Origin: Amoebidium appalachense
Taxonomy: Eukaryota > Protista > Ichthyosporea
Length of the DNA stretch: 64,000 nucleotides
Assembly: GCA_963693365.1 (NCBI GenBank)
Contig: CAVNZM010000007.1
Span: 1,411,979 to 1,475,978, forward strand
Direction of reading: 5' to 3'
In this document: positions 22,201 through 46,200 of the stretch, piece after piece
Layout of the letters: each line of letters opens with the position of its first letter
Numbering within the stretch: position 1 is the stretch's first letter
Notes under the pieces: generated by a model
The model's input: only the letters and a program-made list of their open reading frames with translations
Database searches by the model: none
What the model was told of the DNA's origin: nothing
Position numbers and translations under genes: made by a program

Positions 22201-25200
22201 CACACACACACACACACACACACACACACACACACACACACACACACAACCAACACACCCAACCACCCCATTCAGCCAACATACCAAAAGGGGGTGCGTC
22301 CTTTTGCACTAGCGGTGCCGCAGGGGGCGCTACCAGCTGAGCGTCATATGTAGAAAGGGCGCACACACACAGATCTAGCACCCAGTAGACGCGGGAGTTG
22401 CCAGGCCTCACTTCCTTGTCCTCTCGAAGCATGTCTCCGAGGTTGAGCATGCGACGTAGCACACCGATGATTAAAAGACGTGTGTTTTCCTGTGGTTTTG
22501 GTTGTGCAAACAGGTGAGGGAACGGGTTTTTTTTTGGGGGGGGTAGAATGCGGAACAGGGGACGAGGTACACATTTGCATGGCGCAAGGCAGGCTTTGCA
22601 CGGACGAGAACACACAAAGATTAGGCAACCATCATCAGAGCCCATTTTTGTGCAGCGTCCATGTCTGTGAATGCATGCATATGTGTTCACATGCATGTGT
22701 GTGTGCACATGCATGTGTGTGCGAGCAACTGCATTTGTGTGCCTGCACATGCATGTGTGTGTGCACATGCATATGCATACGCGCGTGTGGATATGCATGT
22801 GTGTGCACATGCCAAGTGTGTGCGCATGTGCATGTGTGTGTGCACCTGCATTGTGTGCGCATGCATATGAGTATGTGGACATTCATGTGTGCACGTGCAT
22901 GCATGTGTGTATGCACGTGCATGCGTGTGCGTGTGCACGTGCATGTGTGTGTGTGTGCACGTGCCTGTGTGTGCACGTGCCTGCGTGTGTGTGTGCACGT
23001 GCCTGCGTGTGTGTGCACGTGCCTGCGTGCGCACGTGCATGCGTGTGTGTGTGCACGTGCATGCGTGTGTGTGCGCACGTGCATGTGTCCATGTGCGCAC
23101 GTGCATGCGTGCGTGCGCGCACGTGCGCACATGCGCGTGTGCACGTGCATGCGTGTGCGTGTGCACGTGCATGCGTGTGTGTGTGCACGTGCATGCGTGT
23201 GTGTGTGCACGTGCATGTGTGTGTGTGTGCACACATGTGCGTGTGCACGTGCATGCATGTGTGTGCACGTGCATGCATGTGTGTGTGCACGTGCCTGTGT
23301 GTGCACCTACCTCGTGGCTGACCAGTGCGCTTCTCAGCACAGCCATCAGTTCAATCACCAAATCCTTGGGCCGGGCATCGGTACCCTCGTCTCCCTGCGG
23401 CAGATCGAGATTGACAGCCGCCTCACTCCAGTTGATCTGTGTGTATCGGGGGCACGTAAGCATAAAGGAGGGAGGAAGGGAGGGGAAAAGAAGAGAAACA
23501 AGAGAGGGCGGGAGGGAGGAAGGATGAGAAACCAGGGAGGGATAGAGGGAAAAAAAAGATAAACCACAGAGGGAAGGAAGAGAAAAGAGAAACAGGGGAA
23601 GGAGGGAAAGGAAAGGAAGAAGACCAAGGCAGGAAAGGAAAAGAAAAATGAAGCAAAAAAGGAAAGGATGGAGGAGAAAATAATAAGAGAAGCAATGGAA
23701 AGAGGGTGTTTGGGGGCCAGGGGTGGGGGAGTGTGTGTGAGTGTGTGAGTGTGTGAGTGAGTGTGTGTGTGTGTGTGTGTGTGTGTGTGTGTGTGTGTGC
23801 GTGTGCGTGTGCGGGGGGAGGGGAGGGGAGGAAAGGGGTTAGAATGTGAGAAAAGGTACTAAATACACATTCATAACGGGCAACAACACACAGAGTGCAA
23901 AACTACATAATGAGAAGGCATGATAAGTAGAGCCCATCATCAGGGGGGGCCCAAGTCATCCACCGGGGAGGGGGGGGGGGGGGGGGGGGGGGTTAACATA
24001 CCCGTGGGGAGAAGAGGTTTGCCAGGGTGTGCAGGGCAGTAGTGGTGATGTCGGGAGTTGGGGGGGAGGACAGGGCCTGTATGCACAGACTGAACACAAG
24101 ATACAGAGAGTCACTGGGAACCTGCGTGCTCCCATCTGGACCTGTGTGTGTGAAAGAGAGAGAGTGTCAGTGTTGGTATGTTTCCATAAAGAAAGAAAAA
24201 GAAGGGAAAAAAAGAAAGAAAGAAAAGGGAAGAAAAGAAAGAGGGAAAAAGGGAGAGAGGCAATGTATGGGAATTTCCTTGGAGATCGAGAATGGCATAA
24301 CTGGTTGTTACGCAACTGTGACTGTGTCGGTGGGGGGGCGGGGGGTGTCGTGGTGGTGGTGTTGGTTGGAGGGGGGGGGGGGGGGGGGGGGGGGGGGGGG
24401 GGGGGGGGGGGGGGAGTGCCTGAGGTTGTGAACTCAGATCATTAAATTGTAGTCTTGTGTACCTGGTATCTCTTGCAGCACTATATTTCAACCGTAGTGA
24501 TATGTTGTGAAGTGTGTGTGACGTGATGTGGTGTGGTATGTGATGTGCGTGTGCGTGTGCATGTGCATGTGCATGTGCGTGTGGGTGTGGGTGTGCGTGT
24601 GCGTGTGCGTGTGTATGTGTGTGTGTGTGTGTGTGTGTGTGTGTGCGTGCGTGTGTGCACAATGAAGGCTCCTCTGCTCAGGGAAAGCCCCCCCCCCCCC
24701 CCCCCCCCCCCCCGCGGCCCAGGGGGAGGGTGGGGAGGAAGGAAAGGATGGGCTACGGGGGAAGGGGGGGGGGGGGGGGGGGGGGAGGGGGGGGGGGGGG
24801 GGGGGGGGGGGGGGGGGGAGGGAAAGGGAGGTAGGGGGGAGAGGTATACTAGCAGGTATAAAGATAGAGGGCCATAAGACGTTTCATGTGTACCTGTCTG
24901 CATAAACACATTGCCGTACTCTGTGGGCATAAGCAGGGCTGCAGCCGCCATGATTGTGGTCCACGATGCCTCATAGTGCTCACGTACAGCCTCACGGGTC
25001 CACTGGCTGCATAGCGGCTCCCTGCAGTGGGAGGGGTGGGTGGAAGAGGGGGGAGGGGAGGGGGGGGGGGGGGGGGGGGGGGGGTGGGAGGGACGAGGGA
25101 GGGAGGGAGGGAGGGACGAGGGAGGGAGGGAGGGAGGGAGGGAGGAATAGAGGGAGGGAGGAATAGAGGGAGGGAGGGAGAGAGGGAGGAAGGGATGAGA

Positions 25201-43200: not shown

Positions 43201-46200
43201 TACATCAAGCACTTCACGGACAATCAGTTCAATTAGTAGCAATAGGGTTGAGGGGATGCCATTGCGTAGATCTTCTCATAGATGAAACTCGTATTTGCAC
43301 CATGTGAGCATAAGAACCCCAGCATTTGATCCATTGATTAATACAACGGATTTTTCTTGTAGACCAATTTGATAGTGCCTTTCCGGTCAAGCAAGTGCGT
43401 ATCACGCCAATCATATTGCAAAAACCATTCTGGTATGAACCGACCCGGAAACCCAAAAGAAACCTCCTTTAAAGGAGTCTCTTTTAGGGATCCGGTTCGG
43501 GTCAGGCCCGAAAGAGATTCATGCTTTATGAATGGCGTGATGCCCATCAAACAGCATTTTGACCCCACAGTTCCACCCGAAAGGGCCCCTAAATCGGCCT
43601 AAAAGAAACCCCCTTTAAAGTAGATGTTCCCAGTGCAACACATACCTAGGGAAGATGCCGGGATGATAGCAGCCATGGCCGCCAGGCCCAAACTGTACCC
43701 ATGCAGTGCCTCTGGGCTCTGTTTCTTGGCATACAACTTATCAATACACTCGAGCATGCACCCTGCCTGCCTGCGTGGTAGTGCCGCGACAAGGCACCTC
43801 AGACACCACGCGGCCGCAAGACGAACGGCGGCAAGGGGGTAGGTGAGGGCTGCCATGATGTGGGTTTTGGCTGTGTCGTAGACGGGTTTGGCTACCGAGC
43901 GGAGACGCACTAAAAGCTGGCCAATCTGTGTGTGGGTGGGTGGGTTGGGGGTTTTTTGTTTTTTTTTTTGGGGGGGGGGGGGGGGGAGGGAGGGGGGTGA
44001 GAGGGGAGGGACGGGGGAGAGGGGGGGAGGGGGGGGGGGCGGGGCCGGGGGGAGGGGGGGGGAGTCTGGGTGTGAGCGAGTATGTGTATGTGTGTGTGGG
44101 TGTGTGTGGGTGTGGGGGGAGGGGGGGGGGGGGGGGGGGGGGGGGTGGATGCGTTGTGCTACACAATATGACATACGAAGGTCCAACTGAAATACAGCCC
44201 ATGAAAAAGGAAAATATGCAGATACACGCGGGGGAGGGAGGGGGGGGGGGGGGGGGGGGGGGGGGGAGGGGGGTAGGCCTTAGAATGAGGTACATAATAC
44301 GATAAATTCAAGGAGGCATGAAAAAAAAAAGGACACAAACACAAGGTATGCAACATCACAACAGCCCCTCTTTACCGGCCGAGCCTTTTTTTTTTTTTTT
44401 TTTTTTTTTTGGGAGGGGAGGGGGGGGGGGAGGGGGGAGGGGAGGGGGGGGGGGGGGGGGGGGGGGGGGGGGGGGGGGGGGGTATCGAAGGTAAAAAGAA
44501 GAAAAAGTGGGAATCTTCTAGAAGATACCTGCTGCAGGGCCACGATCATGGGGTGCTGGGCCGTGTTGGGCTCACTAAGTTTGCCGCACTTGACCAGTGC
44601 CTTGCATAGCTCCTGCGCGCCCCGTTGGTGAGTACACATCCGTTGCTCACGTATCCCTCCATGAACACACACACACAAACACACACACACACACAGGCAG
44701 GCAGGCAGGCAGGCAGGCAGCCTGAGGCAGGCAGGCAGCCTGAGGAGGCAGGCAGGCAGGCAGGCAGGCAGGCAGGCAGGCAGGCAGGCAGGCAGGCAGG
44801 CAGGCAGGCAGGCAGGCAGGCAGGCAGGCAGGCAGGCAGGCAGGCAGGCAGGCAGGAAGCAGGCAGGCAGGCAGGCAGGCAGGCAGGCAGGCAGGCAGGC
44901 AGGCAGGCAGGCAGGCAGGCAGGCAGGAAGCAGGCAGGCAGGCAGGCAGGCAGGCAGGCAGGCAGGCAGGAAGCAGGAGGAGGCAGGCAGGCAGGCAGGC
45001 AGGCAGGCAGGCAGGCAGGCAGGCAGGCAGGCAGGCAGGCAGGCAGGCAGGCAGGCAGGCAGGCAGGCAGGCAGGCAGGCAGGCAGGCAGGCAGGCAGGC
45101 AGGCAGGCAGGCAGGCAGGCAGGCAGGCAGGCAGGCAGGCAGGCAGGCAGGCAGGCAGGCAGGCAGGCAGGCAGGCAGGCAGGCAGGCAGGCAGGCAGGC
45201 AGGCAGGCAGGCAGGCAGGCAGGCAGGCAGGCAGGCAGGCAGGCAGGCAGGCAGGCAGGCAGGCAGGCACTAGCACCACAACCCTCTCAGCACCTACACC
45301 CCCTCCCATTCTCCCATCTCTCTGTCCGTCCACCCAACGGCCGATAATACCACTATTCATCTTTCAAACAGCTTCAGAACATGCCAAGAGAACAACAGTA
45401 AGTACATAAGGAAGAAAGAATGCAGAGAGGGAGCCGGGGGGGAGGGGGAGGGGGAGGGGGAGGGGAGGGGGAGGGGAGGGGAGGGGAAGTGAGGGAGGGG
45501 AGGGGGGGGGGGGGGGGGGGGGGGGGGGGGGATTTAGCAAAGACATGCCTTGACCGTTTTTGCCATCCCACTCTCATCCTGATAAGTGTTGAGAACATAC
45601 GACAGAAGACTATTCACACACTGGCGTGCGCACAGTGTGTCGGCATATGACTGCGGCAAACGGGTAGCAGACAGAAGGTTAAGTGCGTGGACTAGGAACA
45701 CGGGTAGGTTGCGATCCAACCAGCCCATACCCAGGTGGGAGAGAGCGTGACGGTAGGCCGATACAACACCTACACGGGCTTCCTTGGTTCTGTGTGGGGA
45801 GATGAGGATGTCAGTGGCCAGATGTGGTGTAAGGAGGGGGGGGGGGGGGGGGGGGGGGGGGGATGTGCAACAATGTGCAGAGTACACACGACGGACGGAC
45901 AACACAATGCATGCAAAATGAGTACACAAAAGGAGTATCCGTGAGAAGTGGAGCCCACCCTCATAATGATGGAGGTGGTGATGGAGAGGGGAAGGGGGGG
46001 GGGGGGGGGGGGGGGGGGGGGGGGGGGGGGGGGGGAGCACGTACGTGGCCTTTGTGAAAGCCAATGCCAGGGGCACAAGCACATCATCAGGCTGACCCTT
46101 TTGACGGCTGGGCAGAAGCGGAAGGAGCACCCCCAGTAGACGGCCTAGCTCCTCACGGGCCTAGGGTATTGGGGGGAGGGGGGAGGGGGGGGGGGGGGGC

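Follow-up and report, generated by a model that had tools for sequence, protein, structure and literature searches.

The window analysed here, a stretch of 64,000 nt from the ichthyosporean Amoebidium appalachense (assembly GCA_963693365.1, contig CAVNZM010000007.1, positions 1,411,979 to 1,475,978), carries three genes on its minus strand: a GH31 glycosidase gene, a HEATR5 gene (approximately 52480-16255) and a protein kinase gene that is CDK-like by eye. The introns of HEATR5 are host to a family of repeats that end in C-rich tracts, and this family is the subject of the present analysis. The gene itself (16255..52480, minus strand; PF20210 match, E 1e-17 and 7e-12) comprises about 43 exons within approximate limits, and one of its exons found a single match among 1429 candidates, a protein 71% identical and labelled Ihof, which we take to stand for Ichthyophonus. 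Spliced joints of HEATR5 are present in X8, a sequencing run guessed to be RNA, where one spliced contig skips two copy-bearing introns that have canonical ends. A candidate exon at 41000-41040 was dropped because X8 splicing passes across it.

Copies were detected by self-BLAST of the masked window and by nhmmer, with the reversed window and leave-one-out profiles as controls. Five copies are solid (34489, 35028, 38021, 40266 and 41903; single-query nhmmer E <=2e-9, with a best reversed-window match of E 6.9), and about 11 more are supported. When 279 non-simple segments of both strands were scanned without bias, the 12 highest scores all fell in HEATR5 introns and in a single orientation, and eight of 18 further candidates picked by eye passed the leave-one-out test at E <=0.011 (best reversed-window values 0.033-7.6). 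The 23 candidates are distributed over 16 of the 42 HEATR5 introns, and not one to an intron as the initial annotation had it. Of the nine copies which that annotation listed, the five solid ones and those at 23842 and 45863 stand, 22546 has weak to moderate support and 44283 falls away (leave-one-out E 14), while its three additional fragments near 19763, 31981 and 50843 all pass. It had overlooked several short copies as well as a subfamily, here called C, whose members share the head of the others. Candidates at 44283, 44148, 37487, 30380, 28440, 27458, 19912 and 47262 were rejected (leave-one-out E >=5 or no match).

All copies described below lie on the minus strand. Subfamily A contains the longest copy of the window (40263..40669, about 404 nt), the 40266 copy, which is near the majority of the aligned contigs described below and is 5'-truncated at a G7/C7 run. 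The other members are a 5'-truncated copy at 41903..42013, placed head-to-tail directly behind the 42015 copy, a copy at 35028..35158 recovered by both self-BLAST and nhmmer, and two copies with C tracts on both sides (34489..34626 and 38021..38165). The 40266 copy is only 73-89% identical to its neighbours. Its match with 41903 had been given as 92/103 without gaps, which is exact; over 111 columns there are 16 mismatches, 11 of them transitions and six in a CpG context.

Subfamily B is represented by a copy at 23842..23961, with the head, a reduced body in which about 30-40 nt of the A sequence are missing, and C tracts on both sides, and by a copy at 45863..45963 (leave-one-out E 1.6e-5). 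Short B-type fragments occur at 50843..50896 (3' fragment, E 2.5e-4), 41772..41855 (3' fragment and third unit of a tandem run, E 2.7e-5), 37352..37421 (E 7.9e-4), 31981..32037 (E 0.011), 19763..19827 (E 1.2e-4) and 19647..19703 (E 0.0021). Two copies are degraded, one at 22546..22645 (z 7.0; E 0.045-0.77) and one of B type with a head remnant at 42015..42120, for which support is weak to moderate (head z 6.1; E 0.15). Subfamily C combines the common head with another 3' body. Its main copy at 41112..41300 (head versus A, E 1.4e-4) has a C tract at its 3' end and is high-copy, with a summed depth of 1.7e4-7.6e4 in DNA runs; it is accompanied by 3' fragments at 43053..43149 (E 5.6e-7) and 29418..29484 (z 11.5), a copy split by a T/G run at 36990..37162 (head 37112-37162, 3' part 36990-37050; E 0.0087; z 10.9) and a degraded copy at 37233..37329 (z 5.6; E 0.21).

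The 3' end of the element, on the HEATR5 sense strand, lies near the word CATTC; a short spacer of two to four bases, for example TAA or TAC, usually separates this word from the C tract. In all 16 supported copies, C accounts for 20 or more of the 30 nt past this end, whereas the 5' flank is as C-rich in four of them (Wilcoxon p 0.002), and the C-rich 3' flank is also found in the nine supported copies that have unbiased self-BLAST or single-query support, despite the choice of B fragments beside C-runs. The C-rich terminus described initially is thus borne out. The other end is ragged: copies in the window range from 54 to 404 nt with the C end common to all, and many of them stop at a C patch within the head. 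A kept C-tract end combined with a varied opposite end is the pattern of 5'-truncated retroposition. Head-to-tail arrangement is seen in the run 42120-41772, where one copy directly abuts the following one with no tract between them, and the first unit is weakly supported.

The common head consists of GTCGAAAC and, 29-30 nt on, the word CTGA(T/G)GATGGGC (40386..40434 and 41238-41287; the second word alone at 23932). The two words at this spacing are the parts common to subfamilies A and C, and the end shared by 23842 and 40266, noticed initially, proved to be this head (E 1.4e-4). We take the words to resemble hammerhead core boxes. A third GTCGAAAC at 30260-30290 (minus strand) has flanks like those of an alternative head seen in loose ends of contigs from run X2 and is possibly the remnant of another subfamily. 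In one intron, at 21624-22143, five copies of a 25-29-nt unit alternate with (GT)n runs, and this unit has a GGGCTC word like that of the element head.

Statements on the genome at large rest on short-read contigs aligned to two stretches of the window. Twenty of 24 sequencing runs contain part of the stretch, most of them a small share. In the DNA runs X1 and X4, the summed contig depth over 40255-40554 reaches 3.5e5-1.3e6, versus about 8-18 for single-copy contigs, with similar values in X2, and it drops 2-4-fold across 40555-40654 in X1 and X4. The pile-up over single-copy depth is roughly 10^4-10^5-fold in several runs and studies, and the element is a genome-wide high-copy repeat, present by this rough measure in at least thousands of copies. 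At the best-supported joints, other genomic copies stop variously from 40395 to 40669 and continue into G-rich DNA, and the loose ends before 40243-40244 are G-rich as well; alternative bodies also appear in the best-supported loose ends, at 40367 (where the body matches subfamily B), 40414, 40501 and 40601. Depth and joints together indicate a genome-wide element with a length of at least 404 nt, which in other copies extends beyond 40669. The unit of 100-145 nt proposed initially was therefore too short, since the 40266 copy alone reaches 40669 and others run further, and the GGGCCC hairpin taken as the element's start is internal and intact in only two window copies. The upstream continuation seen in the loose ends is absent from the window (two matches versus 2.04 expected).

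The repeats themselves are real. Contigs from X1 and X4, which belong to different studies, span the 5' junction of the 40266 copy with 0 differences, which excludes a base-calling artefact; a further X4 contig spans 40014-40260, including most of the tract, with two differences. Between the 40266 copy and the aligned contigs, 13 positions have an alternative at >=20%, and the alternative is in the majority at about three to four of them. Repeat-matching contigs of X8 were not used; contig depth in this run cannot show level, ends or small RNA. A 514-nt contig of X8 (depth 213) includes 101 nt of A-body sequence, which may represent a copy embedded in a transcript or else the terminal part of a longer element.

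The insertion of the 40266 copy into another repeat gives a view of the target. This host repeat, which resembles a miniature inverted-repeat transposable element (MITE), is split over 40224..40805, with an end piece at 40224-40231 and the rest from 40669, and has an intact paralogue at 43452-43623. The paralogue starts with CTTTAAA followed by G5; at the 40266 site CTTTAA at 40224 is followed by 33 G-rich nt, the element, G7 and the rest of the host repeat. These 33 nt (40230..40262) read on the minus strand as a C-rich tract with interruptions that adjoins the copy's 3' end. With only five G's in the paralogue, the target was evidently short, and about 30 nt of G/C tract were added on the 3' side, in the course of the insertion or through later slippage. 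The word CTTTAA occurs 37 times in 128 kb, counting both strands. A contig of single-copy depth from X2 covers 40669-40861 with one difference and is preceded by 21 unaligned letters; its start at 40669 hints at an empty allele. The MITE-like repeat has purine-rich starts and ends that abut TTAA-containing words, its summed depth is about 300-1300 in DNA runs, and we take it to be Kolobok-like; it overlaps with another long inverted repeat, at 43401-43541.

The same site bears on the idea that the element spreads at the DNA level, by rolling-circle replication of the Helitron or Replitron type or by recombination or template switching between C-runs. Many copies are indeed flanked by C-runs on both sides, and the RNA intermediate is deduced rather than seen. 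However, recombination between tracts would not place a copy in a G5 run, no fixed second end was found, and among the longest inverted pairs at 40150-41350, a region that may stop short of the true 5' end, there are no terminal inverted repeats such as a MITE or other cut-and-paste element would have. Replitrons, according to the available text of PMC9977147, insert upstream of RG and avoid introns. We regard spread at the DNA level as highly improbable.

Every supported copy is in sense orientation with respect to HEATR5, in agreement with the co-orientation first reported. The C-runs of the gene are themselves biased, with 75 on the sense and 33 on the antisense strand (69% sense), and an element-like flank at z >=4 accompanies 13 of the 75 sense runs versus none of the 33 antisense runs (p 0.006; p 0.002 at z 3 and 0.014 at z 5); one of the 13 flanks overlaps an exon and is probably a chance match. 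This difference makes the strand bias of C-runs insufficient to account for the co-orientation, so that its non-random character holds beyond that bias, although no RNA function is required for it. Scored with a matrix derived from the 42 acceptors of HEATR5 itself, 17 copies totalling 1951 nt contain no acceptor-like site in sense versus 19 in antisense; CAG occurs five times versus 56. Antisense copies would add acceptor look-alikes, which makes selection against them plausible, and the purging of such copies through cryptic acceptors may, to judge from these site counts, explain the orientation.

Orientation and clustering could also arise if a promoterless retroposon were carried in the host pre-mRNA and re-inserted co-transcriptionally near its source. 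All supported copies are sense, neither the 33 antisense C-runs of HEATR5 nor the 41 sense C-runs in the introns of the neighbouring GH31 and CDK genes carry the element (0/41 versus 13/75, p 0.002), and a spliced HEATR5 contig is present in X8. Yet the asymmetry in splice sites is a simpler cause of the orientation, and the 40266 copy is close to the contigs while its neighbours are 73-89% identical, which places its nearest kin elsewhere (a comparison to which mapping bias applies). Such a rider on the pre-mRNA is very unlikely.

The initial annotation had left two options, a family of intronic RNAs or a SINE-like element (short interspersed nuclear element) with a poly-C tail or target. The first is unsupported. 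Rfam gave no match in the whole window at the gathering threshold, and at E up to 10 the region 40150-42200 gave six matches to low-complexity models, which we attribute to chance. A conserved fold is absent (consensus -1.36 kcal/mol with eight scattered pairs; whole copy z -1.14), and neither conserved boxes nor covariation, as expected of a structured intronic RNA, were found. A small nucleolar RNA (snoRNA) origin would fit the intronic and sense position, often seen in snoRNA retroposons (PMC1687206, available part), a short head hairpin that can form in 40266 and 23842, and words like boxes C and D at about 40416-40353; the second D-like word, however, is present in only two of five A copies, and the ends are ragged, with thousands of copies and no A-rich tail. 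The snoRNA retroposons of that source have an A-rich tail, a target duplication of about 14 bp and a recognisable snoRNA, none of which was found here. An intron-encoded non-coding RNA family or a retroposon derived from one is thus extremely improbable.

The second option fares better in part: high copy number, one end kept at a C tract and a gain of about 30 nt of tract at one site agree with a poly-C retroposon, whereas its SINE-like nature is unproven, with no tRNA (ARAGORN, 0 found) and with RNA polymerase III (pol III) look-alikes that are internal. The element shares with SINEs and microsatellite-targeting non-LTR (long terminal repeat) elements the conserved 3' end, the variable 5' truncation and the high copy number, and could be a SINE or the 3' untranslated end of a conventional (C)n-targeting non-LTR LINE (long interspersed nuclear element), moved by the same target-primed reverse transcription. 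The truncation pattern would be identical, and subfamilies with a common central part and differing bodies are known from SINE superfamilies. Words resembling the pol III A and B box consensus are present at 40472-40461 and 40436-40425, and no run of four T's follows downstream in the copy. These words, however, lie about 200 nt inside the element and just 24 nt apart, the element extends upstream of them without a drop in depth, and in place of a 5' tRNA-like head there is none of tRNA, 5S or 7SL type (ARAGORN and Rfam empty). The tail is C-rich instead of A-rich, and there is no poly-A or simple-repeat tail besides the target. We judge a SINE or LINE origin unlikely. Microsatellites are reportedly born at the insertion sites of SINE and non-LTR elements.

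The closest known kind appears, from this comparison of features, to be the non-autonomous Chlamys elements among Penelope-like elements (PLEs), such as Chlamys-N4_cRei with its partner Chlamys-9_cRei, and MRC1, though membership is unproven. Chlamys elements insert at (C)n targets with 5' truncation, and some of their non-autonomous families have 3' ends common to autonomous ones (PMC8557442, PMC9977147; available parts of both); insertions of Chlamys-9/N4 are intronic, at (C)n, with a median length of 128 bp through 5' truncation (PMC9977147). Here, insertion at (C)n or (CA)n corresponds to the C-rich 3' flank of 16/16 copies, the G5-7 nested site and the G-rich loose ends and joints, and frequent 5' truncation with a kept 3' end corresponds to lengths of 54-404 nt, most of them 54-145 nt, with joints at 40395-40669, on the assumed RNA strand. 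Partial tandems, tails of 30-40 bp (in Naiads) and indiscernible target duplications, all reported in the available text of PMC8557442, may have their counterparts here in the head-to-tail joins, in the 33-nt C-rich tract seen at one site, where slippage is possible, and in a target duplication that would be hidden in the microsatellite. Most Chlamys elements, according to the same source, also have no hammerhead. The differences are the ichthyosporean host (the hosts reported there are green algae, streptophytes, spike mosses and a slime mould), the lack of a partner reverse transcriptase among the window's open reading frames (ORFs), and the strict sense orientation and modular common-head subfamilies, which the available Chlamys texts do not describe.

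Non-LTR retrozymes are likewise short and non-coding, and two hammerhead-box-like words at fixed spacing recall them. A hammerhead reading of the head was nevertheless rejected: the 29-30-nt spacing recurs in A and C, yet the words stand in reverse order and no type I, II or III fold passes the pairing tests, including the type I hammerhead of canonical PLEs and retrozymes. Retrozymes, in the available text of 10.64898/2026.07.22.740005, are linked to PLEs, consist of monomers in tandem that carry a type I hammerhead, and are absent from introns, whereas the copies here are intronic.

Taken together, the element is real, high-copy and anchored at poly-C, and most likely represents a known type of retroposon in a lineage new for it. 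Our preferred reading, which we hold to be probable, is that the repeats are pieces of a high-copy repeat, namely a non-coding retroposon that borrows a reverse transcriptase, probably a Penelope-like one of Chlamys type, and is copied by it at G/C runs. The 404-nt copy has no open frame, with stops in all three sense frames. Its RNA would be the minus, host-sense strand with a C-rich 3' tail, and this tail would pair with a nicked G-run and so prime reverse transcription. Copying would mostly stop early, and microhomology, often that of the C patch in the head, would then rejoin the product to the target, giving the common 130-145-nt form. The element likely lengthens C runs upon landing, and each insertion would then leave a longer C tract as a new target. 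The sense orientation would probably have two causes, the 69% of C-runs that are sense and the purging of antisense copies with cryptic acceptors.

Several observations weigh against this reading. No autonomous partner was found, as none of 134 window ORFs (>=75 amino acids, below 56000) matches a reverse transcriptase, GIY-YIG or transposase family. Descriptors of hammerhead types I-III gave no match on either strand, and neither an inverted 5' copy nor a long pseudo-LTR was found in the window. The RNA intermediate and its strand are deduced from which end is kept. Depth is not copy number, which is bracketed at 1.5e3-8.5e4 by the overlap correction. The B-type fragments that entered through the 18 eye-picked candidates were first chosen beside C-runs; the gain of tract was observed at one site, where later slippage could also have lengthened it. 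The orientation data come from one gene and are not a genome-wide sample, and neither target bias nor splice selection accounts for the missing copies in the GH31 and CDK introns.

A broader version of the preferred reading would see here a Chlamys-type retroposon system aimed at (C)n, the first of its kind from a holozoan, and in it the engine of the genome's poly-C introns, landing on runs of as few as five G's, leaving a tract of about 30 nt as the next target, surviving almost only in sense on the acceptor-free strand and so reshaping introns genome-wide; this we consider possible, if doubtful. Poly-C-anchored retroposition is known from green algae. Should the proposed model be true, it would explain the origin of the genome's G/C homopolymers, provide a large natural test of how splicing selects intronic insertions by orientation, and suggest that a close relative of animals has an autonomous reverse transcriptase yet to be described. 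The hint of tract seeding and the strict sense orientation, both from a single locus, set the element above an ordinary repeat. We found no prior description of such an element for ichthyosporeans in the literature, although an automated consensus may exist in Dfam or Repbase; among the matches listed for poly-C-targeted retrotransposons nothing was relevant, and four ichthyosporean terms gave no match in the supplement of PMC8557442. In one ichthyosporean genome about 50% of the sequence is repeats, classed only as LTR, LINE, DNA or unknown, and the available text of PMC11244446, which also records CpG methylation in that species, names no such family. Scans of metagenomes with the head pattern gave 0 matches; a looser pattern gave 69, none with a G or C run >=10 and with a best nhmmer E of 0.022, which were put down to chance.

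Some further features of the window deserve mention. At 3550-4724, overlapping ORFs of 277 amino acids (plus strand) and 289 amino acids (minus strand) without Pfam match are probably part of a further gene. Some HEATR5 introns, judged by eye, may have GC or alternative donors near 45548, 42497 and 28610. The GH31 gene (53900-64000, minus strand) has unusually long exons and extra C-terminal modules, and its introns are rich in C-runs but free of the element. At 38700-40060 an AT-rich mid-copy repeat takes up most of a 1.7-kb intron; it has a summed depth mostly of 60-500 with a peak of 1500-4400 at 39888-40019, includes a 49-nt inverted pair at 39707-39911 and has no Pfam match. A short inverted repeat between HEATR5 and the kinase gene (14611-14763; 45 nt, 84%) is possibly a small MITE.

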